A stretch of 33,769 nucleotides of DNA from an uncultured Oscillospiraceae bacterium (GTDB lineage: Bacteria > Bacillota > Clostridia > Oscillospirales > Acutalibacteraceae), in contig USQH01000001.1 of assembly GCA_900556765.1 (NCBI GenBank), forward strand, positions 1 to 33,769, in the 5' to 3' direction. A program made the position numbers and the translations under genes. Position 1 is the stretch's first letter. Each line of letters begins with the position of its first letter. Below, one piece after another: positions 81 to 33,326 of this stretch. The notes under the pieces are model-generated. The model made no database searches, was not told the DNA's origin, and worked only from the letters and a program-made list of their open reading frames with translations.

Positions 81-117
81 TTGTTCCGCACGGTGACCGC
101 ACAGTAACCGCGTATCA

Positions 118-207
118 ATCACTCGGTCACGCACATGAACTACTCGCCGCCTACTTTCCGATCACTCGGTCACGCACGGCGTCCATGCCGATCGCTCGGT
201 CACGCAC
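118..207. repeat. Three copies of 17-mer ATC(A/G)CTCGGTCACGCAC (118-134, 161-177, 191-207)
   Basis: Read directly, with spacing of 43 and 30 bp. It sits between the tspO stop (270) and the hairpin at 42-80. Confidence 0.85.
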
Positions 208-269
208 ATTGCCCCACAGCAACCCACTCGCCTACCATTTGGCGGCTGCTCGAACACGCGCGGTGACTC

Positions 270-743
270 TCAGTTAAGCACGGCGACACCGATGTTAAGA
301 TACAGCGCGAAGCACAGCCATATCAAATAGGGCAGCGTCAAATAACCCGCGCGCTCGTCGATGTGAGAAAAGCGAATTACCATCACGATCACCGCCGCAA
401 TCAGCAAAAGCAGCTCAAATATCGCCACCGTATACAACCCGAATCGGAAAAACAGTACCGGCCACAAAAAATTGAGCGCAAGCTGCAAATAATATGCCGT
501 CATCGCCTCTTGGCGGTTCGCGCCGCCGGTCATGCTGACGATGTAGGCGGCATATCCCATCATCAGGTACAGCACCGTCCACACGATCGGGAAAAGCCAA
601 CCCGGCGGAGATGCAGGCGGTTTGTTCATAACTGCGTACCGCTCCGAAAACGAGCCGGACGCAAACGCCGCCAAGCCGCCGACCGCCAGCGGAATTATCA
701 GCGCAATGAGCAGTTTTTTCAAATTTACAACGGCAACCTTCAT
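270..743 (-). CDS. tspO: TspO/MBR family (tryptophan-rich sensory) membrane protein
   Basis: Five hydrophobic helices and aromatic-rich motifs typical of TspO (PPGWLFPIVWTVLY, ALNFLWPVLFF, PYLIWLCFALYLN). The ORF-track start at 782 is a TTG. ATG at 743 (MKVAVVNLKK) is preferred. Confidence 0.85.
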   Translation of the reverse strand: MKVAVVNLKKLLIALIIPLAVGGLAAFASGSFSERYAVMNKPPASPPGWLFPIVWTVLYLMMGYAAYIVSMTGGANRQEAMTAYYLQLALNFLWPVLFFRFGLYTVAIFELLLLIAAVIVMVIRFSHIDERAGYLTLPYLIWLCFALYLNIGVAVLN

Positions 744-971
744 GATTTTACCCCGTTCCGCCGCCGCTTTTTTAGGCGGCAAGTTATCTGATAAGAGTTT
801 ATGCCGTTTTTGGTAAAATTATTACAGGCGCGCCGCAAAGTACCGCCCGAAATCCAGCCGTTTGCCGACGTACTGCGCAACGCACGAGCGCCGCCGTCCC
901 GTGTGCATGAAAGAAGCGGCGTCTTCGCAAACGAAAAACGCCGCCCGATGTGACTGTTATGCGCCTTAAAC

Positions 972-1598
972 TCAGTCCTTTTTCAGCTTTGCCAGCAGGC
1001 AGAACGCGTTGCCGCCTACCACATTGCCGAGCGTAATGACAACAAGCGGCAAAATCCACCTGTCGATGCTCATCGACAGCATAAAATAGAACATATCGGC
1101 GACGCTGTGCTCAAATCCCGCCAAAATGAATACGCTCACGCACAGCACAACGACCAGCGCCGATGAAAAATTGCGCTTTTCGCCCTGAGTAATATATGTA
1201 TCAACGGCGATAAACATCATTATGCCGCAGAAAACGCCAAGCACGAACAGGCTCGGCAGTCCATCGGCGACCTTTGTTTCGGAAACCGAAGTACAGCGGT
1301 CGATTATTTTATCAAACACACGGGTACAGCGAACAAGTCCGGCTGCCGCCGCCGCACCGATGAAATTGCCCGCCCATACCAGCAGGGTGAACAGTATGTA
1401 CGACGGCTTGTTTTTTACAATATAAGGCGCCTTGCCCGTAAACAGGTTCAGCCCGAAGCTGAGCACGCACAGCAGTCCGACGCTGAACAGGATCGACCCT
1501 GCGACGGCGTTCTCAACCGACAGATAGACCACACAGCCGATGCTGATAGCAAATCCCGCCAGCACGGCAAGCGCAAGGTCACGCAAGCATTTTTTCAT
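972..1598 (-). CDS. Formate/nitrite transporter (FNT) family protein, short form
   Basis: GFEHSVADMFY matches the conserved GFEHS(I/V)ANM segment of FNT channels. It has multiple hydrophobic helices. At 208 aa it is shorter than FocA/NirC. Confidence 0.75.
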   Translation of the reverse strand: MKKCLRDLALAVLAGFAISIGCVVYLSVENAVAGSILFSVGLLCVLSFGLNLFTGKAPYIVKNKPSYILFTLLVWAGNFIGAAAAAGLVRCTRVFDKIIDRCTSVSETKVADGLPSLFVLGVFCGIMMFIAVDTYITQGEKRNFSSALVVVLCVSVFILAGFEHSVADMFYFMLSMSIDRWILPLVVITLGNVVGGNAFCLLAKLKKD

Positions 1599-1683
1599 TT
1601 TTCATACCCCTCATTTTACCTTTATGTATTTATTTATAACGGCATAGACGCCGCAAAAAAACGGTATTTTTTCTCCGCACGGC

Positions 1684-2865
1684 TCACGCTGTCTTTTTTT
1701 CGCGCGATACGGCGAGCGCAATCAGCAGCACTGCCGGGAATATCATCGCGCCGAGCATTCCGGCACGCAGGTTGCCGCCGAATAAATCGGACACGAAGCC
1801 GACGGTAATCGGCCCGAGGGTGCAGCCGAGATCTCCTGCAAGAGCCAGCAGTGCGAAAAGCGCCATTCCGCCGCTTTGGTACTGCTTTGATGCATAAGAA
1901 AAGGTGCCGGGCCACAGCACGCCGTTTGCAAATCCGCACAGAGCGCATCCGACCAGCGACAGCACCGGCAGCGGCGACAGCGCCGCCAAGAGGTAGCTGA
2001 AGATTCCGAGCACACTGCACAGCGCCATAAAGCGTTCCAGCCGAATACGGTCGCTCATGCGCGCGTAAAGCACCCTCGCGCTGCCGGCGAGCAGGGCAAA
2101 GGCGCACGGTCCGGCGATGTCGCCGACCGTTTTGGACACGCCGAGCGCCGACTCGGTAAACGCCGACGCCCACTGGCACATGGCGATCTCACTGCCGCCG
2201 GCGCAGGTCATCATCAGCGCCGATTTCCAAAAGACCGGCGAGCGCAAAATCTCCTTCAGCGGCGCGCTGACGCCGTTTTCGCCCAGCTGATTTATCGGCA
2301 CAGCGGTAAACAGGAACATATTGCACGCCGGCAGCAGCGCCCAGATAAAGGACATATACCGCCAGTTTTCAACGCCGAAAGCAGCGAAAAACGCGGTCGA
2401 TACCAATATTACCGCCGCCTGTCCCCAGCAGTAAAAGGAGTGCAGCAGGCTCATCGCCGCCTCCTTGCGCGAGGTCGGGCATGCCTCGACGATGGGGCTG
2501 ACAAGCACCTCGATCAGTCCGCTGCCGGAGCCGTATATCAGTATTGCGATCAAAATGCCGGTAAACGGCGGCATAATGTACGGCAGCACGCCGAGCGCGA
2601 CCAGTCCCGCGGCGGCAAACGCGTGCGCGGCGACCACCGAGATGCGGTAGCCGATGCGGTCGACGAATTTGGTCGAAAGCCCGTCCACGACCAGTTGTAT
2701 AAAAAAGTTTATGGCGGAAACGGCGGATATCTGTGACAGCGACAGCCCGAAATCGCGGTTAAAGCTGACATAGAGCAACGGCGCAAAATTGCACACGATA
2801 GCCTGCGTAACATAGCCGACGTAACTTGCCTTGATAGTCATGTTGTAGTTTTTGCTTATCTTCAT
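1684..2865 (-). CDS. MFS transporter
   Basis: About 12 hydrophobic segments and an MFS motif-A-like loop (FVDRIGYR) after TM2. ATG at 2865 (MKISKNY) is preferred over GTG at 2904. Confidence 0.8.
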   Translation of the reverse strand: MKISKNYNMTIKASYVGYVTQAIVCNFAPLLYVSFNRDFGLSLSQISAVSAINFFIQLVVDGLSTKFVDRIGYRISVVAAHAFAAAGLVALGVLPYIMPPFTGILIAILIYGSGSGLIEVLVSPIVEACPTSRKEAAMSLLHSFYCWGQAAVILVSTAFFAAFGVENWRYMSFIWALLPACNMFLFTAVPINQLGENGVSAPLKEILRSPVFWKSALMMTCAGGSEIAMCQWASAFTESALGVSKTVGDIAGPCAFALLAGSARVLYARMSDRIRLERFMALCSVLGIFSYLLAALSPLPVLSLVGCALCGFANGVLWPGTFSYASKQYQSGGMALFALLALAGDLGCTLGPITVGFVSDLFGGNLRAGMLGAMIFPAVLLIALAVSREKKTA

Positions 2866-2909
2866 TTTATCACATCCGAAATGCATTTGATGATATGTTA
2901 GCACACTGT

Positions 2910-2933
2910 CAACAAATTTACAATTGTTTGTTG
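2910..2933. promoter_or_regulatory. Inverted repeat CAACAAA-N10-TTTGTTG in divergent promoter region (candidate operator)
   Basis: 7-bp perfect arms at 2910-2916 and 2927-2933, between the divergent MFS and zinc-ribbon genes. No regulator gene is adjacent. Confidence 0.3.
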
Positions 2934-3016
2934 AATATCCGACGCAAATGTGTTATATTTTTTATTAGTAATCGGGATAGTTGTATCCGATAAATATAAT
3001 TTGGAGGTATTTTTCT

Positions 3017-3871
3017 ATGTTCTGCAAAAATTGCGGTGCTCAGTTAAACGACGGCGCGGCGTTCTGCACAAGCTGCGGCGCGCAGACGGACGCTCAGACT
3101 GAGCAACCGGAGGCAAGCGCTCAGCCGGTGAATAATGCTCAGCCGGAGCAGCCGTTCCAGCCCACCATGCCGGTACAGGAGGCGGCTCAGTTCGGCGCCG
3201 TCAGCACCATGCTCGGCAGATTTTCGGCGGTTTTCTCCGACACCCTTTTCCTTGTAATATGCATTCTTGTCAGTGCAAACGCTGCATTTTCGCTCTTTAG
3301 CGGCAGTATAAATGTGCTGAGCGTGCTGTTTACCATTTTCCTTTGGCTGACTTATGTCGGCGCTAAAAAGGGTGAGATCAGCGGCAAGTATATGCGTTAC
3401 ACCAGCGGCACGGTCTTTGCAACATATGTTGTCGGTTGGGTCGTTGCGGGCGTATGCGCTCTCGGCGCTCTCATTTCGCTGGCTTCCGGTGGTTTGATCG
3501 CTTCGATATTGTCCGAAATCAGCAGTGATTATTCTTATGCACTAGGCTCATTGTTCTCCGGCGGTATCGGAGTTTTGGCAGCTATCATATTCCTGATTGT
3601 CGGAGCCGCAATTGCCGTTCTCAACTACTTCGGCGTTTTGACCATGCACAAGCTGGCTAAGTCAATGTACATGAGCGTTGAGTCGGGCGTTGAGCAGCTT
3701 GAAAAGGTTGATTCAGCTAAAACATGGATGCTCGTTTTCGGCATTGTCTACGGCATCGGTGCGCTGGGTTCCGTTGGCGATATTAAGTCGTTCCTGGCAG
3801 AGGGCAGCCTTGCCGCCGCATACATTGTCGCGTATGTTTGGCTCGGCAAAAACTTCGTAAAAAAGGCATAA
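3017..3871 (+). CDS. Zinc-ribbon domain membrane protein (hypothetical)
   Basis: GGAGG at 3003-3007 lies 9 nt before ATG 3017. The N-terminus MFCKNCGAQLNDGAAFCTSCGAQ has two CxxC pairs, followed by a Q/P-rich linker and several TM helices. The ORF-track start 2981 was trimmed. Confidence 0.75.
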   Translation: MFCKNCGAQLNDGAAFCTSCGAQTDAQTEQPEASAQPVNNAQPEQPFQPTMPVQEAAQFGAVSTMLGRFSAVFSDTLFLVICILVSANAAFSLFSGSINVLSVLFTIFLWLTYVGAKKGEISGKYMRYTSGTVFATYVVGWVVAGVCALGALISLASGGLIASILSEISSDYSYALGSLFSGGIGVLAAIIFLIVGAAIAVLNYFGVLTMHKLAKSMYMSVESGVEQLEKVDSAKTWMLVFGIVYGIGALGSVGDIKSFLAEGSLAAAYIVAYVWLGKNFVKKA

Positions 3872-3908
3872 TCGCGCCATAAGCAACAGTTAAAACTACA
3901 TATACAGC

Positions 3909-3949
3909 AAAAGGAACAGGTTCAGCAAATTTGAACCTGTTCCTTTTTT
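3909..3949 (+). terminator. Bidirectional intrinsic terminator
   Basis: Stem GGAACAGGTTCA (3913-3924) pairs with TGAACCTGTTCC (3932-3943). It is flanked by A4 upstream and T6 downstream, between convergent genes. Confidence 0.8.
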
Positions 3950-4124
3950 GCTTTCGGCTGAGTTGTAACCGGCATTTTTTTAATAACAACGGAGTGCGCA
4001 AACCGGCGGCACGGTGCGCGGATTGACAGGACGGCGCATGAAAATCAATTACGCGGCGCGCGAATCGGTGACACGGCACGTGCAAGTTCCCACCTCATCA
4101 AACGGAAAACGGCGTGTTCGGCGG

Positions 4125-5192
4125 CTAAATATCCCTCAGCAACCGCTCGGTGATCTGCGCCGTCGCATCCAAATCGCAGGAGGCGGCGTACAGGCTTTGC
4201 AGCAAACGGGTCTGCTCCCTTGCCTCGTCGAGCGACGCCGCCGCGCCGCGCAGCAGCTCGTCACACGCTTTGCGGTTAAATGAAAGCCGCTGGCGGTGCT
4301 TTTTCATCACCGGAATATCGGTAAATCGCCGCGCATGATACCTCCGTCGATCGGCGTCGAGCGAAATAAACCTGTTTTCGGTACAAAAAGCGACACGCGC
4401 ATCGGGCACAATGACCTGCTCGGCGACCTCGCCGGCAAACAGCGGACTCAGCCCCGTCACTATGTCGTAACCAAGCTCCAGCGCGGTGTGCCGCACCGCG
4501 GTCATGATCACACGCGCCGCCGCGCCGTAGTCGTCGTCAATTATCAGCAGGCTGTCGGCGGCACTGACCAATGCGTCGCCGTCGAACGCGATACCGTCGG
4601 GCGTGACGGCGGAAAGATAGCACAGCCGTTCGGTGCCGCTGCGTTTTTGCCGCCGCCCGAGCAGACGCGCCGTCGACATCATCGCAAACTGTGCCGCCTT
4701 TTTGCCGTCGGTGCAGTCCGCCGCGATGCGGAACGAGTCCCCAAGCAGTGACGATGCCGCCGACATATACCGTGACGCACGCGCATAAAGCGAATCGCGT
4801 GCGGAGTAGACCGTTTCGACCGCGTTGATCTCGCTTTGCAGCCGTTTGGCACTGCACGCGGCGTTGAAATCGACTGTTATCTCGCGCAGACAGGGGCGCA
4901 CCGCGCATATCAGGTGAGGAAAATCGCCCGAAATGACCGCAACGCCCGCACTCGGCGCAAAAACGCCCTCAACCCTCTTGGGATCGAGCGGATCGACCGC
5001 CGTCCAAATCTCGGCGCCGTGCGACAGCAGCTTGCCTGCGGCGGCGGTCATCGCCTGTGCGCGGCCCGTACCCGCCGCTCCGTAAAGAATGTACACACGC
5101 TCGTATCCGCTTGCGGCGTCGGCAAGCAGCGAGCAAAAGCCGTCCGCGCGGACGGCCGACAGAAAGCACCGATCGGGATATGTAAAAGACAT
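4125..5192 (-). CDS. P-loop NTPase-like protein with degenerate Walker A (resembles the Firmicute uncharacterised ATPase family I recall as PRK06851)
   Basis: N-terminal pattern FLSAVRADGF...RVYILYGAAGTGRAQAM...VAVISGDFPH parallels GGxTxxGF...ILKGGPGTGKS...DGTAPH of that family. Walker A reads GAAGTGRA (K to R, S/T to A). LLIIDDD is Walker-B-like. Confidence 0.55.
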   Translation of the reverse strand: MSFTYPDRCFLSAVRADGFCSLLADAASGYERVYILYGAAGTGRAQAMTAAAGKLLSHGAEIWTAVDPLDPKRVEGVFAPSAGVAVISGDFPHLICAVRPCLREITVDFNAACSAKRLQSEINAVETVYSARDSLYARASRYMSAASSLLGDSFRIAADCTDGKKAAQFAMMSTARLLGRRQKRSGTERLCYLSAVTPDGIAFDGDALVSAADSLLIIDDDYGAAARVIMTAVRHTALELGYDIVTGLSPLFAGEVAEQVIVPDARVAFCTENRFISLDADRRRYHARRFTDIPVMKKHRQRLSFNRKACDELLRGAAASLDEAREQTRLLQSLYAASCDLDATAQITERLLRDI

Positions 5193-5251
5193 AGCAAAAC
5201 CTCGCGTATGAAAAAAGTTTTGCTATATTCTATTCGCCCGACGAGGTTTTG

Positions 5252-5380
5252 TTACAGCGCGGTTATCCAGTCGATAAGCGCCGCGCCGAAGTAGCCGACC
5301 GCTATAAGCGCAAAGCACAGCATGGTAAAGGCAAAGGCGCGCAGCGCTATCGCCGTGCTTTTGCCGGAATTTTTATTCAT
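5252..5380 (-). CDS. Small hydrophobic protein (42 aa), hypothetical
   Basis: MNKNSGKSTAIALRAFAFTMLCFALIAVGYFGAALIDWITAL has one TM helix. GGGGTGA lies 5 nt before the ATG at 5380. It is co-directional with and 60 bp upstream of 4125..5192. Confidence 0.4.
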   Translation of the reverse strand: MNKNSGKSTAIALRAFAFTMLCFALIAVGYFGAALIDWITAL

Positions 5381-5576
5381 CCGTATCACCCCACGGTTAG
5401 TATCGGCGGCGGCGCGCATTTTATTCCGCGCGGACAAAATCAATCGGAAAAGCTCCCCGCATACAATGATATAGGGGAGTTTTTACCGCCGCGTTTTGTA
5501 AAAGTATGACATCCTCCATTTACCGCTTGATAGCGGTCGCGGCAGGGATTAGAATTTTATTACGGAGGAGAATATT

Positions 5577-6149
5577 ATGCATATTTTTTTCGATTCACCC
5601 CAGCAGTTTAAGATCGAACTTGACCGCGAGGATATGAACGAGCTTAACATAACCTTTGAGCAGATGGATTACAACGACGAGCACACGCGCGAGGTGCTTC
5701 AGGGACTGCTCCACCGTATCGGTGCGCCGGCAGGATTCGACGCCGAATCGGGCAGAATAATAATTGAGGTCTTTCCGAGCCCCGACGACGGATGCGTAGT
5801 TCGGTTCACGGCGGTCGAAGCGGAGCGCGCCACGCCGACCGTTCGTATGCGCCGCGTCAGCCGCGAACCCGAGGTGTATCGGTTCGAGAACGCCGCCGAT
5901 ATGCTGGCGGCGGTGTCGGCGATGCACGATACCGTCGGTCAGGACAACGACATTCCGTGCGAGCTGTACCTGCTTGACGGATATTATCAGGCTGTGGTGT
6001 ATATCGACCGCGATGAAAAGCGAGCGCCGCGTATACTCAGCGAATTCGGAAGCCGCGTAGGGACGGGAACGGCGGCAGCGGCGTTCACCGCCGAGCACGG
6101 GCAGCTGATAAGCGAAAATGTCGCCGCCGATATCGGAAAATACTTATAG
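5577..6149 (+). CDS. mecA: MecA-family adaptor protein
   Basis: GGAGGAG RBS. The N-terminus (FKIELDREDMNELNITFEQMDYNDEHTREVL) and C-terminus (VYRFENAADM...LYLLDGYYQAVVYID...ILSEFG...AEHGQLISENVAADIGKYL) align by eye to B. subtilis MecA (LRFGDFEDV...YSFENRYYLYVDF...ILLEYA...EEYGKLIISEHALETIKKHF). Confidence 0.7.
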   Translation: MHIFFDSPQQFKIELDREDMNELNITFEQMDYNDEHTREVLQGLLHRIGAPAGFDAESGRIIIEVFPSPDDGCVVRFTAVEAERATPTVRMRRVSREPEVYRFENAADMLAAVSAMHDTVGQDNDIPCELYLLDGYYQAVVYIDRDEKRAPRILSEFGSRVGTGTAAAAFTAEHGQLISENVAADIGKYL

Positions 6150-6600
6150 AACAAAATACCGGATATGACATATTCTGACGGGCAATATCGTGACAAAACG
6201 CCGTAAGCGTGACAAAATATCACATACGCGCGGCAAACTGCAAGCCATAATTGTGACTGAATATCGCAAATGCAGCGTGACAGCAGATCACAAAGGCGCA
6301 GTAATCCGTTGCAAATGTGCCAAAACATCACAAGCACGAAACAATCCGCGAGCAGCAATCGTTGTATAAAATTACAAACACAATCGCCACAGCAAAACAC
6401 ATCCGTGACACCTGTTCACGCACCGCGCCGCCGACTACGCACCGCGCCGCCAACTACGCACCGCGCCGCCAACTACGCACCGTGCTACCCATCCACGGAC
6501 TGCGCTACTTATTCACGCACGTTGACACCCACTTACACACGGTGACAGCAGATCACGCTCCTAACAAAGCATCAAAAACGTAAACGTGACAGCAAAGCAC
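6150..6600. repeat. 450-bp non-coding repeat-word region: GTGACA words plus 19/20-bp tandem units (6421-6517)
   Basis: GTGACA occurs at 6190, 6209, 6277, 6405, 6542 and 6586. The identical 15-mer GTGACAGCAGATCAC occurs at 6277 and 6542. Tandem units CACCGCGCCGCC(G/A)ACTACG sit at 6421-6439, 6440-6458 and 6459-6477, followed by degenerate 20-mers. Confidence 0.9.
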
Positions 6601-12298: not shown

Positions 12299-12810
12299 AA
12301 AAAATCGCCTCCGACACATTGTATGCCGCCAACGGTGACCGCATGAAAACGTAAAATCACACAACTGCAATGACATCGCGCTTAAAAAGCCGCTTGCAGC
12401 CGCATTATAATAGCCGTTACAGCCTATCACAACCGGCGCAAATTGCCGTCGGCAGCAAATACCGCTCATAAACGGCGTGCTTTGCCCCAAAAAGCGCATA
12501 CCTTTTACAGACGGCGTGACTCGTCGGAAGCGCACGGCAAACTGACCGATAATGCACCGCGTCGCCCTCTCACGCGCAGCTCTGCAATCCGCATGGCACG
12601 CGCTGTCGGTCGGAAACCCCTTGGTTCTTGCATACAGTTTCCATTTTTGACAAGGGGATTTACACGCACTGCGCCACCCGTTCACGCGTGCATAATTCAC
12701 ACTGCACATTTGCCTCTCTGCATTTTTGAACGTCGGTTATTCAGCGCTGTCAGATAAATTACGAGATAGTCGAAATCGCGCATATTACGGGTTTTTACGG
12801 CATTTTCCTC

Positions 12811-12839: not shown

Positions 12840-12846
12840 TTAACAA

Positions 12847-14095: not shown

Positions 14096-14336
14096 CGTGT
14101 TTATTATATATTACAGCTGCCGGAAAAGTCAAATCCGGCGTTTTTTTGCACGAAAAATCCTCATTGTCAAAGAAAAAACAGCGTGTTAAACGCCGAGGGA
14201 TTCCCGACCGACAGCGCGCACCGTGTAAATTGCGGCTCAGTGCGTGGATGTGTAGCATCGCACGTGCAATTAAACGCCTCCGCCACGCCATGCGGTGCGC
14301 CTGTTCGCCAAGCTATAACTTAGTTCTGCAGTGCGG

Positions 14337-18765: not shown

Positions 18766-18788
18766 CGATGTAACGTCTCCCAAATGTG

Positions 18789-19045
18789 AATTGACAGCGC
18801 AGTGCGTGGACGAGTGTCACGGCGCGTGTATAGATAGCGCGGCGCGTGAACGAGTATCACGGTGCGTGACTGGTTGGCTTGGCGCGTGCATAGATAGCGC
18901 AGTGCGTGAATTGACAGCGCGGTGTGCGATTGACAGCACGGCGCGCGATCGAGTATCACGGCGTGCGAATTGACAGCGCGGTGCGTAATCAAGTGTCACG
19001 GCGTGCGATTTTCAGTCACGGGCGCAAAAATCAGTTTCACTGTGA
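18789..19045. repeat. About 13 tandem degenerate 20-bp units ending in GCGTG
   Basis: Exact 20-bp register from 18789 to 18928 (7 units), then 19-21-bp units. Unit types are AATTGACAGCGCRGTGCGTG, RACGAGTRTCACGGYGCGTG and YATAGATAGCGCRGYGCGTG. Confidence 0.9.
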
Positions 19046-19133
19046 TAACCGGTCACGGTGGGCGGCAAGTCCCATTTCACAAACCTAAAAAGCTCACATT
19101 TACTCATAAAAACCACCCTCAACGGAGATATAT

Positions 19134-21123: not shown

Positions 21124-21144
21124 AAAAGTTATTTTTCACATAAA

Positions 21145-21179
21145 GCGGCGGGGCAAAACACCCCGCCGCCGTTCTTTTT
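21145..21179 (+). terminator. Intrinsic terminator upstream of the dnaA promoter
   Basis: Stem GCGGCGGGG / CCCCGCCGC with a 7-nt loop, followed by CGTTCTTTTT. Confidence 0.8.
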
Positions 21180-21312
21180 ATGCGGCTGATGCCGCTATGT
21201 CGCCAAAGCAGCGTTTTTTTAAGCGCGGACGGGTTCGGCAGGGCGCATGATATATATTATTTCACGCGGCTGAAATGTCAGTGAAAGTCATGCAAAAAAA
21301 TACATTTTTCCC

Positions 21313-21341
21313 TTGTAAAACAGCCGTTTTTGTGGTACAAT
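21313..21341 (+). promoter_or_regulatory. dnaA sigma-A promoter
   Basis: TTGTAA (21313-21318), 17 nt, then TACAAT (21336-21341). This gives a 5' leader of about 95 nt that contains a 12-bp hairpin at 21373-21405. Confidence 0.6.
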
Positions 21342-21440
21342 CAGAGTGTATTATTATGTATATTTTTTCGACGCAAAAACGACCGCCTTTTGACGGCGTT
21401 TTTGCCTTATCATAAGTCTGTGTCAGGGGGTTGTATTTAT

Positions 21441-22748: not shown

Positions 22749-23497
22749 TCGGTGCGTGAACGGGTGGCGCGGCGCATGAGGCGGCATTACCGTTTGTGAA
22801 TCGGCGATGCGGCGCATGAACCGGCATTACCGTTTGTGAATCGGCGGTGTGGCATATGAATCAGCAACACAGTGTGTGATTTTAAGTCACCGTGCATGTG
22901 AGTTAATGCCACGGCGTTTGAGTCAGTCACATGGCAATACGACGACACGATGTAAATTTAGATTACCGTGTGCGCGAATCAGCGTCATCGTATGTGCGTG
23001 AATATCGCGGAGCGAAGGCACAGATTCCATAGTGTGTAAAATTCAGTTACCTTGTTCGTGAGTTAATGCCATCTTGTTCGTGAATATCACGGCGCGCGTA
23101 AATTGACAGCACCTCATTTGCGGTTTATTCAGAGCATGAATTTATATTACGACGGTTGCAACATACATTATGTGATATGCATTAGTGCTGTGATGCATAT
23201 AAAGCCCTAAAATTTCCGAATCGAAAAAAGATTAACTTTTTTAACAGAATTTTCAACAATTAACTTTAAAGCTGTGTTGAACTTTTTAAAAACTCATTTT
23301 CATTCAACATTTTAACATTATTTCAAAAATATTTCAAAACTACAAAAAGCAGGACAAGCTCCTGCCGCTGCTGAGAAAAATCACCTTTTCAACATTTCAT
23401 CAGCCTCTACTGCTGATACTGTTTTATTTTATTTTTTATATAAAAAAATCTGCGATTTTTCGTTTTTCAGGCAATTCAGAGAGGAGATATCAACATC
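22749..23497. other. Candidate oriC (dnaA-dnaN spacer): GC-rich repeat half plus AT-rich half with DUE-like tract
   Basis: A 749-bp spacer in the position of Firmicute oriC. Region 22749-23110 is repeat words. Region 23200-23497 is strongly AT-rich and holds a 28-nt pure A/T run at 23422-23449. TTTTCAACA occurs at 23250 and 23386, with variants at 23301 and, inverted, at 23273. Confidence 0.6.
22771..22850. repeat. Two tandem 40-bp units (36/40 identical)
   Basis: GGCGCATGAGGCGGCATTACCGTTTGTGAATCGGCGATGC followed by GGCGCATGAACCGGCATTACCGTTTGTGAATCGGCGGTGT. Confidence 0.9.
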
Positions 23498-24601: not shown

Positions 24602-24810
24602 ACGAAATAAGAATTACTACCGAATTTATACGGCTTGACAGCTTTTTAAAGCTTGCGAACGCGGTCGGCAGCGGCGGTCAGGCAAAGATGCTCATTCAGG
24701 ACGGTCAGGTCACTGTTAACGGCGAGGTATGCACCATGCGCGGAAAGAAGCTGTACGGCGGCGAAAAGGTTGAGTTTGACGGCGAGACCTTTTCGGTCGT
24801 AAAGGAATGA
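24598..24810 (+). CDS. yaaA: S4-domain RNA-binding protein YaaA
   Basis: A 70-aa S4-like sequence (IRLDSFLKLANAVGSGGQAKMLIQDGQVTVNGEV). Its ATGA overlaps the dnaN stop. Conserved position. Confidence 0.85.
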   Translation: MNEIRITTEFIRLDSFLKLANAVGSGGQAKMLIQDGQVTVNGEVCTMRGKKLYGGEKVEFDGETFSVVKE

Positions 24811-24817
24811 GCGCGTT

Positions 24818-25957: not shown

Positions 25958-25960
25958 AAA

Positions 25961-26221
25961 ATGTATCTGCATTTGGGCATGGACACGGTGGTAAGAGACG
26001 AGGACATCATCGGCATTTTCGATATGGACAGCACCACGGTGTCAAAGCGGACACGCGATTTTTTGAATAAGGCACAGCGCGACGGCGACGTTATCAGCGT
26101 TGCGGAGGATCTGCCGCGGTCGTTTGTCGTATGCCGTGACAAAACGCGCAGCAGCGGCCACGCCGTTTATTTGTCCCAAATCACACCCCAGACGTTGATG
26201 CGCCGCGGAAAAAACTTGTGA
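25961..26221 (+). CDS. remB: DUF370 protein (RemB/YaaB-like)
   Basis: The motif IIGIFDMDSTTVSK...R.F is typical of DUF370. Conserved position between recF and gyrB. Confidence 0.8.
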   Translation: MYLHLGMDTVVRDEDIIGIFDMDSTTVSKRTRDFLNKAQRDGDVISVAEDLPRSFVVCRDKTRSSGHAVYLSQITPQTLMRRGKNL

Positions 26222-26281
26222 GAGTTCCGCGGAGAATATTTTTGTAAAAATTCCGAAGCGAAATCTTTATTATAGCCCTGT

Positions 26282-26518
26282 CTCGCAAATTTTTGTGGAA
26301 ACTTTGCCTCGTAAATTTTTGCGGGAACTTCGCCTCGTAAATTTTTGCGGGAACTTCGCCTCGTAAATTTTTGTGAGAGTTCCGTCTCTAAAATGCTTGC
26401 GAAAACGGCATTTTTCGGCGCAGGCAGAGAGTTTCCATTGTCAAATAGGGAAAACGGCTTGCAAGCGCCGAGAGAATTTTGCAAGCGCCCAGGGAATTTT
26501 GCAAGTGCCGCGAGAATT
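26282..26518. repeat. Tandem repeats between remB and gyrB: 26-bp units x4-5 (26282-26411) and 20-bp units x3 (26459-26518)
   Basis: CTCGTAAATTTTTGCGGGAACTTCGC is identical at 26308 and 26334, with variants at 26282, 26360 and 26386. TTGCAAG(C/T)GCCNNGRGAATT occurs at 26459, 26479 and 26499. TTGTGAGAGTTCCG occurs at 26216 and 26371. Confidence 0.9.
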
Positions 26519-26614
26519 TTCATCTAACGGCACACGGTAGGTATCAGAGATTAAAAATTCCGCATTATGCGATATATATACACTACAAATCCACATGATA
26601 AGGAGCATAAAAAG

Positions 26615-28582
26615 GTGAGTAACGAAAACAGCGTAAATAATTTCAACGCGCCGGTCACCGAAAAATACGATGAGTCGTCCATTCAGGTACTGGAGGGACT
26701 TGAGGCGGTCAGAAAGCGCCCCGGTATGTACATCGGTTCGACCGGTGAACGCGGTCTGCACCACCTCGTTTACGAGATCGTGGACAACGCTATCGATGAG
26801 GCTCTTGCCGGCTACTGCACCCATATCGAGGTCGACATTCTGCCCGACGACATCATTCGCGTCACCGATAACGGCCGCGGTATTCCTGTCGGCATCCACC
26901 CCAAAATGGGTATCCCGACCGTGGAAGTGGTATACACCATTCTTCACGCCGGCGGTAAATTCGGCGACGGCGGCTACAAGGTCGCCGGCGGTCTGCACGG
27001 CGTAGGTGCATCGGTCGTAAACGCGCTGAGCGAATATCTTGAGGTTGTCGTACATAACGGCGAGCATATTTACAAGCAGAGGTACGAGCGCGGAAAGGTC
27101 GCCACCAAGCTGAATGTGATCGGCGATACCGACCGCACGGGAACAACCGTCACTTTCAAGCCCGATCCGACCCTTTTCACCGATACCACCGTTTACGATT
27201 TCGACATTCTTGCAAAGCGCCTGCAGGAGCAGTCCTTCCTCAACGCGGGTATAAAAATCACTCTGACCGACCGCCGCGACGAAGATAATGTCCGCAGTGA
27301 AACCTTCCACTACGAGGGCGGTATCAAGAGCTACTGCGAGTACCTGCTTTCAAAGAAGAAAAAGGACGCTCTGCATGAAGATGTCATCTATATGTCCGCC
27401 GCGACCGACACGGCGTCGGCGGAGGTCGCCCTGCAATTCAATACGGGCTACGACACACAGATAATTTCCTTTGCAAATACAATGCATACCATCGACGGAG
27501 GTACGCACGAGTCGGCGTTTAAGACCTCGCTGACCCGTGTTATCAACTCCTATGCTAAAAAATTCAAGTTCTTAAAGGACAGCGATACCAACCTCAAGGG
27601 CGAGGACGTTCAGGAGGGAATGATCGCCGTCGTCAGCGTAAAGCTGGAGGACGCGCAGTTTGAGTCGCAGACAAAGGCAAAGCTGGGCAACACCTCAATG
27701 GGAACGATGGTCAGCCAGATGATCGGCGAGCAGTTTATGGACTATCTGGAGAATAATCCCGCCACAGCAAAGATAATCATAAACAAGACCATTGCATCCG
27801 CGTCCGCCCGTGAGGCGGCGCAAAAGGCGCGCGAGACTTCACGCAGCCGCACCGGACTGGCAAAGGCGCGTATGCCCGAGAAACTGACCGACTGCATATC
27901 GGACGACGTGACAAAGACAGAGCTTTACATCGTCGAGGGAGATTCGGCAGGCGGCTCCGCCTGCGACGGCAGAAACTCGACATATCAGGCAATACTGCCG
28001 CTGTGGGGCAAGATGCTGAACGTCGAAAAGGCGCGTATTGACAAGGTTTTCGGTAATGACAAGCTGACGCCCGTCGTCGTCGCCCTCGGAACGGGAATAG
28101 GCGACGATTTCGACATCGCAAAGCTCAGATATCACAAAATAATCGTTATGGCGGATGCCGACGTTGACGGCGCGCATATTCGCGTGCTGCTGCTGACCTT
28201 CTTTTTCCGCTATATGCCCGAGCTTATCGAGCAGGGACACGTCTTTTTGGCTCAGCCGCCGCTGTTCAAGGTGACGGCAAAGGGGTCAAAGGGTAAAAAC
28301 TTCCGCTACGCCTTCTCCGACGAGGAGCGCGACACATTCATCGAGCAGCTCGGCGGCAGTGAAAAGGTTGACGTACAGCGTTACAAAGGTCTCGGTGAGA
28401 TGGATCCCGAGCAGCTTTGGGAGACCACCATGGATCCCGAAACACGCACAATGCTAAAGGTCGATATGGCCGACGCGGAGGCAGCCGACGCGACATTCAC
28501 CCTGCTGATGGGCGACGAGGTCGAGCCGAGACGCAAATTCATCGAGGACAACGCGCTGAACGTTGTCAATCTTGATATATAA
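26615..28582 (+). CDS. gyrB: DNA gyrase subunit B
   Basis: GHKL ATPase motifs (HHLVYEIVDNAIDEA), Toprim EGDSAGG and PLWGKMLNVEKA. GTG 26615 with AAGGAG 9 nt upstream is preferred over ATG 26567. Confidence 0.93.
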   Translation: MSNENSVNNFNAPVTEKYDESSIQVLEGLEAVRKRPGMYIGSTGERGLHHLVYEIVDNAIDEALAGYCTHIEVDILPDDIIRVTDNGRGIPVGIHPKMGIPTVEVVYTILHAGGKFGDGGYKVAGGLHGVGASVVNALSEYLEVVVHNGEHIYKQRYERGKVATKLNVIGDTDRTGTTVTFKPDPTLFTDTTVYDFDILAKRLQEQSFLNAGIKITLTDRRDEDNVRSETFHYEGGIKSYCEYLLSKKKKDALHEDVIYMSAATDTASAEVALQFNTGYDTQIISFANTMHTIDGGTHESAFKTSLTRVINSYAKKFKFLKDSDTNLKGEDVQEGMIAVVSVKLEDAQFESQTKAKLGNTSMGTMVSQMIGEQFMDYLENNPATAKIIINKTIASASAREAAQKARETSRSRTGLAKARMPEKLTDCISDDVTKTELYIVEGDSAGGSACDGRNSTYQAILPLWGKMLNVEKARIDKVFGNDKLTPVVVALGTGIGDDFDIAKLRYHKIIVMADADVDGAHIRVLLLTFFFRYMPELIEQGHVFLAQPPLFKVTAKGSKGKNFRYAFSDEERDTFIEQLGGSEKVDVQRYKGLGEMDPEQLWETTMDPETRTMLKVDMADAEAADATFTLLMGDEVEPRRKFIEDNALNVVNLDI

Positions 28583-28597
28583 GGAGGCGGACGAGAA

Positions 28598-31210
28598 ATG
28601 GCAAGCAAGGAAACAGTTTACTGGCCCAAGGACGAGGATACCAAGATCGTCCCCGTGGAAATAGTCGAGGAGGTAAGAAAGAGCTTTCTTGACTACGGTA
28701 TGTCGGTCATAGTCAGCCGTGCGCTGCCTGATGTGCGCGACGGCTTCAAGCCCGTCCACCGCCGCATACTTTATACAATGTACGAAAACAACCTGACGCC
28801 CGACAAGCCCTACCGCAAGTGCGCGGATACGGTCGGTTCGGTGCTCGGACGCTATCATCCGCACGGCGATGCGTCGGTCTACGACGCCATGGTCAGAATG
28901 GCACAGGACTTCTCCCTGCGCTATCCGATGATCGACGGTCACGGTAACTTCGGCTCGATCGACGGTTATCCGGCGGCGGCATACAGGTACACCGAGTCAC
29001 GCATGAACAAGCTGTCGCTGCACATGATGGACGACATCGACAAGGAAACGGTCGATTTTGTATCCAACTATGACGACCGTCTGAAGGAGCCGAGCGTCCT
29101 GCCCTCACGCTTCCCGAACCTGCTGGTAAACGGCTCGCAGGGTATCGCCGTCGGCATGACGACTAATATTCCGCCGCACAACCTCGGTGAGGTCATCGAC
29201 GGTATGTGCTGTCTGATCGACAACCCCGACGCAGGCATTGAGGACCTTTGCCAGTACATAAAAGGCCCGGATTTCCCGACCGGCGGCATTGTTATGGGTA
29301 TGTCGGGCATTCGCGCCGCCTACGCCACCGGACGCGGCAAGATCGTCATGCGCGGAAAGACCGAGATCGAGGAAAAGCACAACGGCAAATTCCGCATTAT
29401 TATCACAGAAATTCCCTACGGCGTTAATAAAAAAGCGCTGGTTAAGTCCATATACGACCTCGCCGTCGAGAAACGCGTCGAGGGCATTGAGGACGTCGTC
29501 GACCATTCGAGCAAGCGCGACGGCGGTATACGCATCGTCGTCGACCTAAAGCGCGACGCAAATCCGCAGGTCGTGCTAAACAAGCTGTTCGCTTATACCC
29601 AGCTCCAAAGCACCTTCGGAGCTATCATGCTGGCTCTGGTAAACGGCAGACCGAAGGTTCTCACGCTCAAGGAGATGCTGCAAAACTACATCGACTTCCA
29701 GTGCGAGGTGGTCGAACGCCGCACCCGTTTCGATCTCAGAAAGGCGGAGGAGCGCGCCCACATTTTAGAGGGACTCAAAAAAGCGCTCGACTTCATTGAC
29801 GAGGTCATCGCCATTCTGCGCTCGTCCAAATCGGTGCCCGAGGGCAAGGAAGCACTCATGGCGCGCTTTGATTTTACCGAAATTCAGGCGACCGCCATCG
29901 TTCAGATGCGTTTGGGACAGCTCACCGGACTGGAACGCGAAAAAATTGAGGAAGAACTGGCGGCTCTGCACGAGAAAATCCGCGAGCTGAAGGAGATACT
30001 TGCCAGCCACGAGCGTATTCTTGACATCGTAAAGACCGAGGCACTCAATATTCGCGACAAGTATGCCGATGACCGCCGTACCGAGATCACCGCAGTCAGC
30101 GGAGATGTCGATATAGAGGATCTGATCCCCGATGAGGAGAACGTCATTACCCTCTCCGAGATGGGCTACATTAAGCGCGTCGTCTCCAACGAATTTGAAA
30201 TACAGAAGCAGGGCGGCAGAGGCCGCAAGGGCGCTACCATGCGCGACGAGGACATGACCAAGTTTATGTTTGTCTGCTCGTCCCACGACCGCCTGCTCTT
30301 CTTCACCAATATGGGCAGAATGTATAAGCTCAAGGCTTACGAAGTGCCGGAGGGCAGCCGCACGGCAAAGGGACTGAACATTGTCAATGTCTTGCCGCTG
30401 CTGCCGGACGAAAAGGTCAGCGTCATGATAAAAGCGAACGACCTGTCCGAGGAGGGCAAGTACCTGTGCATGGTCACCCGTCACGGTATCATCAAGCGCA
30501 CCGAGCTGAATAAGTACGATTCCAACCGCAAGGGCGGCATAAACGCCATCGTCCTCGACGAGGGCGACGAGCTGAAGTGGGTTCAGATGACCAACGGCAG
30601 CGATCAGCTTCTCATCGCCACCCGCGACGGCATGGCAATCCGCTTTAATGAGACCGACTGCCGTCCGATTGGCAGAACGGCGCGCGGCGTAAAGGCGCTC
30701 ACTCTGCGCGAGGGCGACGAGGTGGTCGGAATGGTTGCTGTCGACGATAACAAGACGCTGCTGACCGTTACCGAGACCGGTTTCGGACGCCGCTCCCACT
30801 TCGATAATTACCGCGTCCAGTCGCGCGGCGGCAAGGGTATCATTAACTACCGCACCGCCAAATTCGGCAAGGTCGCGTCGGTGCAGGCGGTCGATCAGAA
30901 CGACGACGCCATACTTATCACCAGCGGCGGCATCGTTATACGATTCTATACCGAAAATGTCAGCGTCATTTCCCGTCCGGGCAAGGGCCTGATCGTTATG
31001 CGCCCCGACGAGGGTACATTTGTTAAGTCGATGGAGCTTGCCGAGCACAGCGACGAGGAGGCTACCGCGGAGATAATCGACGACGGCAGCGCAGCCGACG
31101 GCACCGAGACCGCCGAAGAAGCAGCACAGGCGGCAGACGAGGCGGTTGAAACGATCGAATCGGTCGAAGCGGCTGAAGCGGCTGAAACCGTTGCCGCGCC
31201 TGAAGAATAA
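28598..31210 (+). CDS. gyrA: DNA gyrase subunit A (with about 55-aa acidic C-terminal tail)
   Basis: AAGGAGG RBS, RALPDVRDGFKPVHRRILY, QRDR GRYHPHGDASVYDAMVRMAQ, catalytic Tyr in AAYRYTE, and beta-pinwheel repeats. Confidence 0.95.
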   Translation: MASKETVYWPKDEDTKIVPVEIVEEVRKSFLDYGMSVIVSRALPDVRDGFKPVHRRILYTMYENNLTPDKPYRKCADTVGSVLGRYHPHGDASVYDAMVRMAQDFSLRYPMIDGHGNFGSIDGYPAAAYRYTESRMNKLSLHMMDDIDKETVDFVSNYDDRLKEPSVLPSRFPNLLVNGSQGIAVGMTTNIPPHNLGEVIDGMCCLIDNPDAGIEDLCQYIKGPDFPTGGIVMGMSGIRAAYATGRGKIVMRGKTEIEEKHNGKFRIIITEIPYGVNKKALVKSIYDLAVEKRVEGIEDVVDHSSKRDGGIRIVVDLKRDANPQVVLNKLFAYTQLQSTFGAIMLALVNGRPKVLTLKEMLQNYIDFQCEVVERRTRFDLRKAEERAHILEGLKKALDFIDEVIAILRSSKSVPEGKEALMARFDFTEIQATAIVQMRLGQLTGLEREKIEEELAALHEKIRELKEILASHERILDIVKTEALNIRDKYADDRRTEITAVSGDVDIEDLIPDEENVITLSEMGYIKRVVSNEFEIQKQGGRGRKGATMRDEDMTKFMFVCSSHDRLLFFTNMGRMYKLKAYEVPEGSRTAKGLNIVNVLPLLPDEKVSVMIKANDLSEEGKYLCMVTRHGIIKRTELNKYDSNRKGGINAIVLDEGDELKWVQMTNGSDQLLIATRDGMAIRFNETDCRPIGRTARGVKALTLREGDEVVGMVAVDDNKTLLTVTETGFGRRSHFDNYRVQSRGGKGIINYRTAKFGKVASVQAVDQNDDAILITSGGIVIRFYTENVSVISRPGKGLIVMRPDEGTFVKSMELAEHSDEEATAEIIDDGSAADGTETAEEAAQAADEAVETIESVEAAEAAETVAAPEE

Positions 31211-31215
31211 TCTCC

Positions 31216-31338
31216 GACGCGGTCACACCCAATACCGCAGTGGAGAAATAACATCTGACGCGGTCACACCCGTTACCGCACCCGAGGAATAATCTTCGAC
31301 GCGGTCGCACCCGTTACCACACCTGAGGAATATTATTC
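31216..31338. repeat. Three tandem 41-bp units right after the gyrA stop
   Basis: GACGCGGTC(A/G)CACCC(A/G)(A/T)TACC(G/A)CA... starts at 31216, 31257 and 31298. Confidence 0.9.
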
Positions 31339-31398
31339 GATCCAGCACGGTTCTCAGAGGTTGCCGAACATTATACACTTGACTCGAGGTAAGCAAAA

Positions 31399-31710: not shown

Positions 31711-32180
31711 TATAGTAAGATTATTGTATCGTGCGCTTTTATAATGTACGACAGGTTTATAGGGAACGAGTTTTAATCAGTGTTTATACGGAACGGTTTT
31801 TAATGCCGATTGAGACTGCTTAAGCTGTGGAATACATATAATTTTTTTAATAACGAGCAAAGCGACGGCAGACTTCAAAAACAGTTTTTATATCAAACCT
31901 CCTGCTGATACGGTCGAACATTCAATAGTCGGCGCTGTTTTCGTTTGTATTCGCCTTTTTTTGCAAATGCAGTCATTGATATAACAGTATAAGTAACCGC
32001 ATTTCAATTATATAGCACGCCCCTAACCAACAAATACCAATACAATAATATAAGGTTTCCAAGCGGCTTTCACAGCATAAACAAAAAGCGCGGCGTTTTG
32101 TAAAAAACACCGTGCTTTGCATAACAAGAAGCATATAAAGCAGGCGATACGAGGATTTTTGCACCCGTATCGCCGTATAA

Positions 32181-32714
32181 TCATCTTTTTTTCTGCAACG
32201 CCATGAGGTTTTGCAGAATTTTTATCAGAGCGATGACCAAAAATCCGGCAATAACGTACATTATCGCACCGATCAGACTGTCGATTACCGACGATATCAT
32301 CGCTCCTGCTGACGCAACGTCGCCATCTGCGCCGAATATGGCAAGCATATCGCCCACGAATGACACCGGTGCGATCAGAAACAGCACGCAGCTTATCACG
32401 CGCATGACCATGCAGACAGTTTTTCCGGAATCGGAATACAATCCGCTGAGGGAGTTTTCTTCATAGCGATGCGCCGAGTAGCCGTCCAGCGACGGACGCC
32501 GCTCCTCCGTTTCTCCGTCGCCGAAGAACCGCACTGCATCGCCGCCGTTCGCATTGTCCTTTGCCGAATAGTGGCGCACTCCGGTGCCGCTTTCGTTTTT
32601 GTAATCGGTGTAATCGGGACCGTCGTCGGCAGGAGCTTTGCCCTTTTTTCGCGGACGCTCCTCAAAATCGTCGTCAATCACCGAAATGATGTCGTTATCG
32701 TTTTTCTTAGCCAT
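32181..32714 (-). CDS. Hypothetical membrane protein (charged N-terminal half, two C-terminal TM helices)
   Basis: GGAGG RBS on the minus strand before ATG 32714. A hairpin GGCGATACG/CGTATCGCC lies downstream at 32135-32166. Confidence 0.65.
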   Translation of the reverse strand: MAKKNDNDIISVIDDDFEERPRKKGKAPADDGPDYTDYKNESGTGVRHYSAKDNANGGDAVRFFGDGETEERRPSLDGYSAHRYEENSLSGLYSDSGKTVCMVMRVISCVLFLIAPVSFVGDMLAIFGADGDVASAGAMISSVIDSLIGAIMYVIAGFLVIALIKILQNLMALQKKR

Positions 32715-32779
32715 TGGCGGTTCAACCTCCGATAAAATTTAGCCTGATTTTTAAGCGGTTTTGCCTTGCTTTCGCTGCT

Positions 32780-32946
32780 CTCATGCACCGCGCTACGTTC
32801 TCGCATACCGTGCCACATTCTCGCGCACCGTGCTACGTTCTCATGCACCGCGCTACGCTCTCACGCACCGTGCCATGCTCTCACGCACCGTGCCATGCTC
32901 TCATTCACTGTGTGATTGATTTCCACGTTGTGGGCGGTTTTGGCGT
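32780..32946. repeat. Array 1: six exact-register 20-bp units plus a conserved terminal motif
   Basis: Units CTCAYGCACCGYGCYAYGYT span 32780-32899. They are followed by a degenerate unit and then TGATTTCCACGTTGTGGGCG (32927-32946). Confidence 0.9.
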
Positions 32947-33132
32947 TCATGCAGGTCGTACATACCGACACCATCTGCACGAAAATCACACAACGATTGT
33001 GCGCTGATGTACTTTATTTTCACACTGTGCGTACCTTTTTACGCCGTGCGAGTTGTCGACATGAACTATCCCATAATGCCGGTGACCGTTTCCTCTTGAC
33101 AATGGGGGCTTGCCACGCCGCCGAATTGCGTT

Positions 33133-33259
33133 CTCGCATACCGTGCTACGTTCTCACGCACCGCGCTACGTTCTCATGCGCTGTGTCATGCTCTCACGCG
33201 CTGTGTCATGCTCTCACGCACTCTCACGCACCGTGTGACTGATTTCCACGTTGTGGGCG
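33133..33259. repeat. Array 2: four and a half 20-bp units plus the same terminal motif
   Basis: Units span 33133-33222. The identical 20-mer TGATTTCCACGTTGTGGGCG follows at 33240-33259, 313 bp from its copy in array 1. Confidence 0.9.
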
Positions 33260-33326
33260 TCTTTGCGGGGCAGCTTGCGCGCCGTTTTCACGCCGCTTGA
33301 GCGCCGTAAATGTCACATTGTCTTGC

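Follow-up and report, generated by a model that had tools for sequence, protein, structure and literature searches.

Short repeats and binding sites described in bacteria, together with the minisatellites of eukaryotes, resemble the repeat arrays found in the intergenic spacers of a 33,769-nt stretch (assembly GCA_900556765.1, contig USQH01000001.1, positions 1 to 33,769; hereafter the window) of an uncultured Oscillospirales gut bacterium of the family Acutalibacteraceae. The mycobacterial interspersed repetitive units (MIRU) of Mycobacterium tuberculosis, as well as other bacterial variable number tandem repeats (VNTRs), are intergenic direct repeats of tens of bp, with dispersed related units and strain-variable copy number. 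The BOX elements of Streptococcus pneumoniae (boxA-boxB(n)-boxC) are modular, intergenic, dispersed and species-specific, contain a variable internal module and encode no protein. Repetitive extragenic palindromes (REPs) and bacterial interspersed mosaic elements (BIMEs) of enterobacteria are short GC-rich mosaics, often located between a stop codon and a terminator, whose cluster size varies between strains. Jeffreys-type eukaryotic minisatellites share a short GC-rich core, differ in the remainder of the unit and show an extreme variation in number and interspersion. Finally, iterons, parS and ram sites bring together direct repeats of 17-22 bp at about two helical turns and GC-rich dyads of the words TCACG and CGTGA.

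The arrays of the window share these traits but depart from each system. MIRU units are 40-100 bp long and carry small open reading frames (ORFs) that couple adjacent genes, whereas the units here are 19-20 bp, far more degenerate, made of a core plus a linker, and carry no such ORFs; furthermore, they vary in order too, and longer modules build higher-order repeats. BOX modules are 45-59 bp with predicted stable folds, while the module here is 20 bp, with no fixed ends and no folding excess. REPs are imperfect palindromes of 20-40 nt which alternate in orientation and are linked to REP-associated tyrosine transposases (RAYT); in contrast, the units here are direct repeats, with a dyad of at most 4-5 bp in a minority of them. 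A preliminary description of this DNA had set the arrays apart from REP/BIME elements, and this was borne out: units are head-to-tail, with one orientation per array and no hairpin formation, and no RAYT (IS200/IS605-like Y1 transposase) was found in the ~55 kb examined. Clustered regularly interspaced short palindromic repeats (CRISPR) were rightly discarded as well, the arrays having a degenerate 12-nt core and 8-nt linkers from 4-6 recurring types, where a CRISPR array has identical repeats of 23-47 bp and unique spacers of about equal size; no cas genes were found in the neighbourhood. Unlike Jeffreys-type minisatellites, the arrays belong to a haploid bacterium and a Chi-like role of the core is disfavoured. 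Iterons, which adjoin a rep gene and an AT-rich unwinding element and keep a constant number, were rejected because the arrays occupy at least eight chromosomal loci with unrelated neighbour genes, no adjacent rep or par gene, a hypervariable copy number and decaying units, and no plasmid or phage record was similar to them. The family is best filed among the dispersed bacterial minisatellites or VNTRs, with MIRU, BOX and BIME as nearest analogues.

Judged from comparisons of sequence between loci, strains and species, the arrays probably constitute a lineage-specific, dispersed and non-coding minisatellite (VNTR) family, which would be selfish or neutral. Within the time that separates strains, units are gained, lost and reordered in the arrays, and modules are exchanged from one locus to another. 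Furthermore, the nearest array-free sister species have no arrays in their orthologous spacers, and the arrays inflate the intergenic fraction. All evidence was drawn from ~55 kb around dnaA, and gene calls in the window were transferred from public assemblies.

The repeats are a real and statistically solid related family, narrower in scope than first described. Tandem Repeats Finder (TRF) recovers the arrays previously reported in 20-bp register, at 18786-19027, 32777-32908, and 33129-33219, and gives a 19-bp array at 6418-6482, overlapping a region (6421-6517) that had been read as 19/20-bp units. It also shows 40-bp units at 22769-22879; periods across the family are 19, 20, 40, and 60 bp, and five spacers show the 19/20/40-bp register. 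Motif counts are well above those of dinucleotide-preserving shuffles. GTGCGTGA is observed 15 times against 1.81 expected, 14 of these copies being in spacers; CACGNNNCGTG is observed six times against 1.04, a count reached by none of 100 shuffles; and CRCGGYGCGTG, allowing one mismatch, is observed 33 times against 8.95. A position matrix of the 20-nt unit, built from 20 units, gives 42 matches (3.5 in shuffles), 36 of them within six spacers. According to an unbiased k-mer comparison of spacers and genes, the top words are CGTGA, GTGCGT, GTGACA, and GTGCGTG, the last being 12-fold enriched in spacers and present, counting the flanks, in nine of 15 long ones. Gapless repeat extension interlinks seven spacers at 65-88% identity, through the stretches 3994-4053, 6403-6505, 12552-12689, 14235-14266, 18797-19008, 22747-22835, and 32823-33201.

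The window contains 21 spacers of at least 150 bp, totaling 7.8 kb (23% of the window), and not the 12 counted at first. The core motif is found in eight of them and matrix matches in six, while at least seven are free of any array; the family is thus present in six to eight of the 21, and the statement that nearly every spacer longer than 150 bp is repetitive does not stand. The extent proposed earlier (~4 kb, 12% of the window) agrees with the sum of the spacers then listed (4168 bp, 12.3%), but TRF-detectable arrays cover only 1157 bp (3.4%). Spacers 17684-18048, 19608-19883, 26222-26560, and 31211-31398, which had been included as members, carry unrelated repeats, with zero matrix matches and no core motif. 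The array loci, and two arrays outside the family, are as follows.

81..269, minus strand: tspO spacer with three spaced copies of the core GTGCGTGACCGAG (127-134, 170-177, and 200-207), lying in the interval from the stop codon of tspO (270) to a bidirectional, strong terminator (41-69); it is the visible end of the ~977-bp tspO-rny spacer.
3994..4082, plus strand: degenerate ~20-bp units with three matrix matches, which share 65% identity with the 18.8-kb array; a terminator (3909-3947) lies on one side of them and, on the other, gene 4125-5192 of the minus strand has its stop codon.
6403..6520, minus strand: 19-bp array (6418-6482, 3.4 copies, 97% match) and flanking family units.
12552..12689, minus strand: two family units, identified by matrix and repeat extension; 54 nt of this stretch (12571-12624) are 74% complementary to module H at 14193-14246.
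14155..14266, plus strand: module H (CATTGTCAAAGA...GACAGCGCG, ~81 nt, 14155-14235), followed by one unit.
18786..19010, plus strand: main array of 11 head-to-tail units, with five alleles among 11 strains.
22749..22879, plus strand: 40-bp units, each made of two diverged 20-mers, directly after the dnaA stop codon.
32777..32908, minus strand: 20-bp array of 6.3 copies, reading CTCACGCACCGTGCCATGCT on the plus strand.
32910..33129: non-repeat head of 220 nt, between both serS-side arrays.
33129..33235, minus strand: second serS-side 20-bp array of ~5 units.
26282..26520, plus strand, outside the family: two arrays upstream of gyrB, one of 26-bp units (26282-26406) and one of 20-bp units that differ from those of the family (26459-26520).
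31188..31340, plus strand, outside the family: 41-bp array of 3.7 copies, downstream of gyrA.

Each unit consists of a 12-nt core, CRCGGYGCGTGA (CRCGGYGC followed by GTGA), and an 8-nt locus-specific linker, and units of 19-20 bp follow each other head-to-tail. When the 18.8-kb array is cut at the core, it shows 20-nt units (one of 19), each with GTGA, an 8-nt linker and CRCGGYGC, and the linkers belong to four or five recurring types (ATTGACAG, ACGAGTRT, ATAGATAG, CTGGTTGG, and others). The 32.8-kb arrays show the same core with another linker set (GARYRTRG). Pooling of the units of all strains gave 256 instances and 167 distinct 20-mers, in which eight positions (G1, T2, G3, A4, C13, C15, G17, and G19) are 77-95% conserved and the linker shows little conservation. 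Of the units, 48% keep GTGA intact and 27% the full core GYGCGTGA. The CACG-N3-CGTG dyad, put forward as the hallmark of the unit, is carried by only 5% of the 256 unit junctions, and the copy at 4072-4082, thought to stand alone, sits inside a degenerate array with three matrix matches. Core variation in the pooled units comprises 315 transitions and 109 transversions, and because it is mostly transitional, a CG-rich ancestor, CGCGGCGCGCG, may have decayed to CACGGTGCGTG-type variants. Longer modules, namely H (~81 nt), M (~85 nt, only in other strains) and the 220-nt head, are interleaved with the units and give rise to higher-order repeats. The arrays had been described as non-coding, in agreement with the alternation of 19- and 20-nt units and with the lack of Pfam family matches in the ORFs that run through them. 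Alternating purine-pyrimidine runs of Z-DNA type were also considered in the core; by eye they reach only 5-7 bp and the idea was dropped.

Over 20 assemblies of this species, independent of each other, were retrieved by exact-protein look-ups. Their genes are 98.5-100% identical, and alignments break precisely at the arrays, with copy number differing up to 5-fold between near-identical strains. The DUF6062-ybaK spacer shows alleles of 303, 368, 590, and 609 bp, and one 368-bp allele is as long as that of the window but has its units in another order; at its two ends, this spacer is invariant across strains over 20 bp (start) and 128 bp (end). Eight alleles were found for the spacer 14096-14336 (236 bp in the window, and 330, 534, 610, 628, 647, 1227, and 1267 bp), all composed of H, 20-bp units and M in differing numbers. 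The dnaA-dnaN spacer, measured from anchor to anchor, shows 551, 810, 822, or 850 bp, the mecA-ATPase spacer ranges between 498 and 751 bp, and the serS-side spacer has 612 or 1057 bp, the long form (strain L120) containing one extra head-plus-array block. The remA-gyrB spacer, whose repeats are outside the family, ranges between 220 and 465 bp. Furthermore, the 18.8-kb array of some strains holds an inserted H or H+M, ~80% identical to the copy at 14.2 kb; therefore, sequence moves between loci. In a comparison with miniature inverted-repeat transposable elements (MITEs), these insertions proved polymorphic for presence or absence and have core sequence at their edges, without recognisable terminal inverted repeats or target site duplications. 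The allele of the window recurs in L016, L017, and L021, and another is common to L019, L022, and L025, which come from independent samples and different assemblers; identical alleles in independent assemblies indicate that the arrays are real.

Sister species were defined by DnaA homologues at 85-87% identity. Three sister groups with DnaA 86-87% identical (P0005, P0007, and P0004) are array-free and show compact orthologous spacers: trmE-gidA has 26-72 bp, against ~700 bp in this species, and remA-gyrB has 121-134 bp. GTGCGTGA does not occur in these groups and their TRF cover is 0-0.2%. The coding fraction is 0.89-0.90 in the P0005 and P0007 groups vs 0.73-0.82 in this species (window ~75%, flanks 73-82%). 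Among GTDB species representatives, the nearest GyrA is only 69% identical, so that this species is not one of them, and those relatives are also without arrays. The sister species P0003 contains a few unrelated 10-18-bp arrays. The P0006/P0133 group (DnaA 85% identical, labeled Acutalibacteraceae at NCBI) also has variable arrays, with units of its own (22-31 bp) built on the same GGTGCGTG core, among them a 31-mer (TAAGGATTTAGGCGCGGTGCGTGTCTCTGCG) and a 22-mer (GGCGCAGGGTGCGTGTGCGAGC); in its soj-spo0J spacer, the 22-mer is present in two, four or at least 16 copies in three strains. As the core is common to two species, the family is at least as old as their split, or it has moved between both. 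Its distribution across the genus is patchy, and any one locus can do without it.

Scans of JGI metagenomes and IMG/VR with a two-unit core pattern gave 90 and three stretches, respectively, none of them from this species; they are unrelated environmental tandem repeats, mostly of high GC content, and added no loci. Unrelated high-GC environmental or viral contigs (L041/L118, which is from IMG/VR, L085, L086, and L103) show a 13-nt perfect palindrome, GTCACGGTGCGTGAC, repeated in tandem every 20 bp; the best units here contain this same palindrome, and its copies may be iterons or operators in those contigs. Searches of the literature gave no description of the motif or the family.

A minisatellite origin would account for this pattern through the following steps. 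Arrays would expand and contract by replication slippage and unequal recombination between cores, while ectopic recombination or gene conversion would spread modules between loci. Old copies would erode mainly by transitions at CpG-type positions. The arrays, being neutral or selfish, would be tolerated in the slack between terminators and promoters, and the cell would not depend on them. The family may also have been seeded from an operator-like sequence, since some units recreate the dyad GTGA-N7-TCAC, which is found across the genus (see below).

Some observations weigh against this reading. Neutrality leaves unexplained a core which is common to at least eight loci and to two species while the linkers are wholly different, with eight positions 77-95% conserved across 167 distinct units, and periods that in the two species alike gather around two turns of the helix (19-22 bp). 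The conserved core, the differing linkers and these periods leave room for a sequence-specific agent; binding, recombination preference or mobility could maintain or spread the core. Moreover, the evidence spans only the ~55 kb around dnaA, and short-read assembly can mis-size long arrays, two scaffolds having runs of N within arrays.

The preliminary description had suggested that the dyad fits a dimer binding site. A spacing-specific dyad does exist in this DNA, but it is GTGA-N7-TCAC, which spans the linker, and not CACG-N3-CGTG. In 53 kb of this species, GTGA and TCAC are found nine times at N7 and 0-2 times at every other spacing between N0 and N12. All copies in this species are intergenic, the copies carry at least 12 different 7-nt spacers, and the pattern restricted to N7 is also found in sister species. 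The sites are distributed as follows.

Window 6209, 6277, 6405, 6542, 18846, 19042, and 22876: GTGA-N7-TCAC, the first four in the spacer that holds the 19-bp array (6418-6482).
L119 2529; L130 50 and 82; L132 12947 and 20546; L139 2259, 11628, and 14572: GTGA-N7-TCAC outside the window.
19042..19056: dyad in unique sequence, within the strain-invariant 128 bp upstream of ybaK.
22876..22890: dyad between dnaA and dnaN, where a second species has a comparable dyad with AT-rich spacer (L139 11628).

Furthermore, upstream of gidA, one GTGA-N7-TCAC fits between the -35 and -10 hexamers of a promoter-like TTGCAT-17-TATAAT, and species L130 has two copies upstream of this gene. The spacing of the half-sites is the same as in the GlnR/TnrA box, TGTNA-N7-TNACA (PMC4335299), a resemblance in geometry and not an identification. 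The outer T is present in eight of ten unique dyad sites and the outer A in three of ten, and the neighbours are not nitrogen-metabolism genes, upstream of which the 17-bp GlnR/TnrA operators lie. GTGA-N7-TCAC is a candidate operator of a dimeric regulator and the best lead for protein binding.

The arrays could accordingly be imagined as a multi-site platform for a dimeric protein that recognizes GTGA-N7-TCAC or the core; they would titrate this protein, regulate through its cooperative binding, or organise the nucleoid or the origin. The sharp spacing, intergenic location and diverse spacers of the dyad, its extension to sister species, its presence at the invariant site upstream of ybaK and at gidA in two species, and the geometry of the GlnR/TnrA box all speak for such a protein; moreover, some array units and module M recreate the dyad, and adjacent units of some types do so at a 20-bp period. 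However, the N7 dyad is present in 12% of the units and the N3 dyad in 5%, half of the GTGA half-sites are mutated, and the 32.8-kb arrays almost lack a TCAC partner. Copy number is up to 5-fold variable between strains, sisters that have no arrays still carry the dyad in unique sequence, parS is a different site, and the GlnR/TnrA likeness is one of geometry, with no candidate protein identified. We consider a platform unlikely, though with a real chance; because only 12% of the units carry the dyad, the arrays are read as amplified and decaying operator-like sequence rather than working operators.

The organising variant had been proposed at the outset, as an origin-proximal array for a chromosome-organising protein, and it is not supported: the proposed dyad is present in only 5% of the units, the arrays are absent from orthologous spacers of the array-free sisters, and copy number varies up to 5-fold. 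parS, the ParB/Spo0J site, is a 16-bp palindrome, TGTTNCACGTGAAACA. A perfect parS (TGTTTCACGTGAAACA) is located in the noc-soj spacer (L119 ~6330), ~3 kb past the right end of the window, and is conserved there in species L130 (~4740); array units were discarded as parS, as their TCACG and CGTGA words are 3 or 7 nt apart and lack the TGTT/AACA arms, and parS lies elsewhere. The ram site of RacA, a GC-rich 14-bp inverted repeat (TGACGCCGGCGTCA) clustered near oriC, was also rejected, since its sequence differs from that of the arrays, which are tandem, decaying and hypervariable vs single conserved sites. No cluster of DnaA boxes (TTATCCACA, at most one mismatch) was found beside dnaA in six species (window 20247-23497; L127, L130-L133), and the window shows no GC-skew switch; therefore, the origin-proximal premise is unproven, and oriC may not adjoin dnaA in this genus. 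The arrays were likewise rejected as DnaA boxes.

RemA, encoded in the window, is reported to bind AT-rich 7-bp repeats spaced by 3 bp (PMC8481266), which do not fit the GC-rich 20-mers, and it was discarded as a binder of the main arrays. In sister species, direct repeats with a 10-bp period are found directly upstream of remA (L131 5914-6160, L139 14454-14650, and L130 14039-14112), as 12 copies of GTGACA-N4-GTGACA and seven copies of GCGACCAACG. Given the spacing of the RemA sites (PMC8481266), these repeats may be autoregulatory.

A related possibility is that the core is the recognition sequence of a clade-specific DNA-binding dimer, related to the protein that reads GTGA-N7-TCAC, or of a nicking or recombination enzyme, which would occupy the arrays or drive their expansion and spread between loci. 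We regard this as improbable; if it were true, occupied arrays would be a large tunable decoy or architectural platform, and a bacterium would have a minisatellite system driven by a protein.

It is very unlikely that the arrays are transcribed REP-like hairpins which stabilise upstream mRNAs at the 3' end or terminate them there, as had been hypothesized. Three arrays do follow a stop codon (that of tspO, gene 4125-5192, or mecA) and precede the first strong terminator, but two of them have the G-rich strand in antisense, so that, where a strong terminator could be placed, arrays in 3' untranslated regions are found in both orientations. Folding energies are not better than those of dinucleotide shuffles on either strand (z = -0.07, -0.42, -0.83, and +0.07), no Rfam match was obtained for the arrays at gathering or relaxed thresholds, dyads have only 4-5 bp and occur in a minority of units, and the repeats are direct, whereas those of BIMEs alternate. 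The plus strand is the G-rich one at position 3950 and at 14.2, 18.8, and 22.7 kb, and the minus strand at positions 81, 6150, and 12299 and at 32.7 kb. A constant sense-strand reading had been reported for four spacers between co-directional genes, and these four hold; however, in a fifth co-directional spacer, 14096-14336, with one unit in the window and tens in other strains, the G-rich strand is antisense to both genes. With the flanks included, ~6 of nine loci are sense and three antisense, a weak majority which is not significant. Array orientation follows no consistent rule.

By analogy with the Chi-like core of human minisatellites, the core could also be a Chi-like hotspot of AddAB recombination that renders the arrays self-amplifying, which we hold to be extremely unlikely. 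GCGCGTG, which is Chi in Lactococcus and streptococci (PMC5959072), lies within the core, and isolated GYGCGTG copies in genes of the window are strand-skewed 16:2. Nevertheless, this skew ranks only 11th among 105 7-mers of the same composition, GCGCGTG is not over-represented in sister species (one observed vs 0.7 expected), array orientation is 4:4 on both strands, and GAAGCGG, over-represented and skewed in relatives, is a better choice. The skew of GAAGCGG is 16:3 in sister species (L127-L133) and 58:12 in more distant relatives (L001-L015), and in the window (7:4) it is not clear. GAAGCGG is the Chi sequence of Staphylococcus aureus, and its distribution makes it a candidate Chi for this clade.

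It is scarcely credible that metagenome assembly from short reads produced the arrays and their variation as artefacts: two scaffolds show runs of N inside arrays and many contigs of the species are short, but the same alleles appear across independent samples and assemblers, the degeneracy of the units lets reads resolve the arrays, and the flanks are identical.

About a quarter of the region is intergenic, and much of the excess over the sister species consists of fast-turnover repeats, an unusual situation, since bacterial genomes are biased towards deletion. In metagenomes, the arrays can serve directly as strain markers for this uncultured gut species, and the comparison of array-rich and array-free sisters offers a natural experiment on the origin and persistence of minisatellites in bacteria. 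The dyad GTGA-N7-TCAC, found near promoters in unique sequence throughout the genus, can be tested as a candidate operator. The arrays also cause contig breaks, N-gaps and spurious ORF calls. Runs of N are found in 17-bp and 22-bp arrays of two public scaffolds (L135 10824-10923 and L139 ~5650-5750), and a spurious gene of 244 aa was called within the serS-side array of L120 (9032-9766).

The window contains tspO, a P-type ATPase gene, tRNA-Gln, OGG, a GH2 glycosidase, DUF6062, ybaK, dnaA-dnaN-recF-remA-gyrB-gyrA, and the 3' end of serS. The flanks continue the pattern: the tspO-rny spacer (977 bp) contains 17-bp arrays, the secF-dockerin spacer has 954 bp, and the trmE-gidA spacer carries a 19-bp array, CCCAATTGCGCGGAGTAAG. 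The block from dnaA to gyrA (21441-31210) is inverted in relation to its neighbours (trmE...serS and tspO), whereas all these genes are co-directional in five sister species (L127-L134). A strain-variable island is located between sodC and OGG (L019/L020 ~2800-6000 vs window 12300-14100), and in some strains HTH_3/XRE-type genes replace the DUF2752, TM2 and zinc-ribbon genes of the window. The P-type ATPase gene contains a coding tandem repeat of 30/36 bp (window 8481-8586, a repeat region of metal-binding type), and the length of the protein ranges between 809 and 826 aa across strains.

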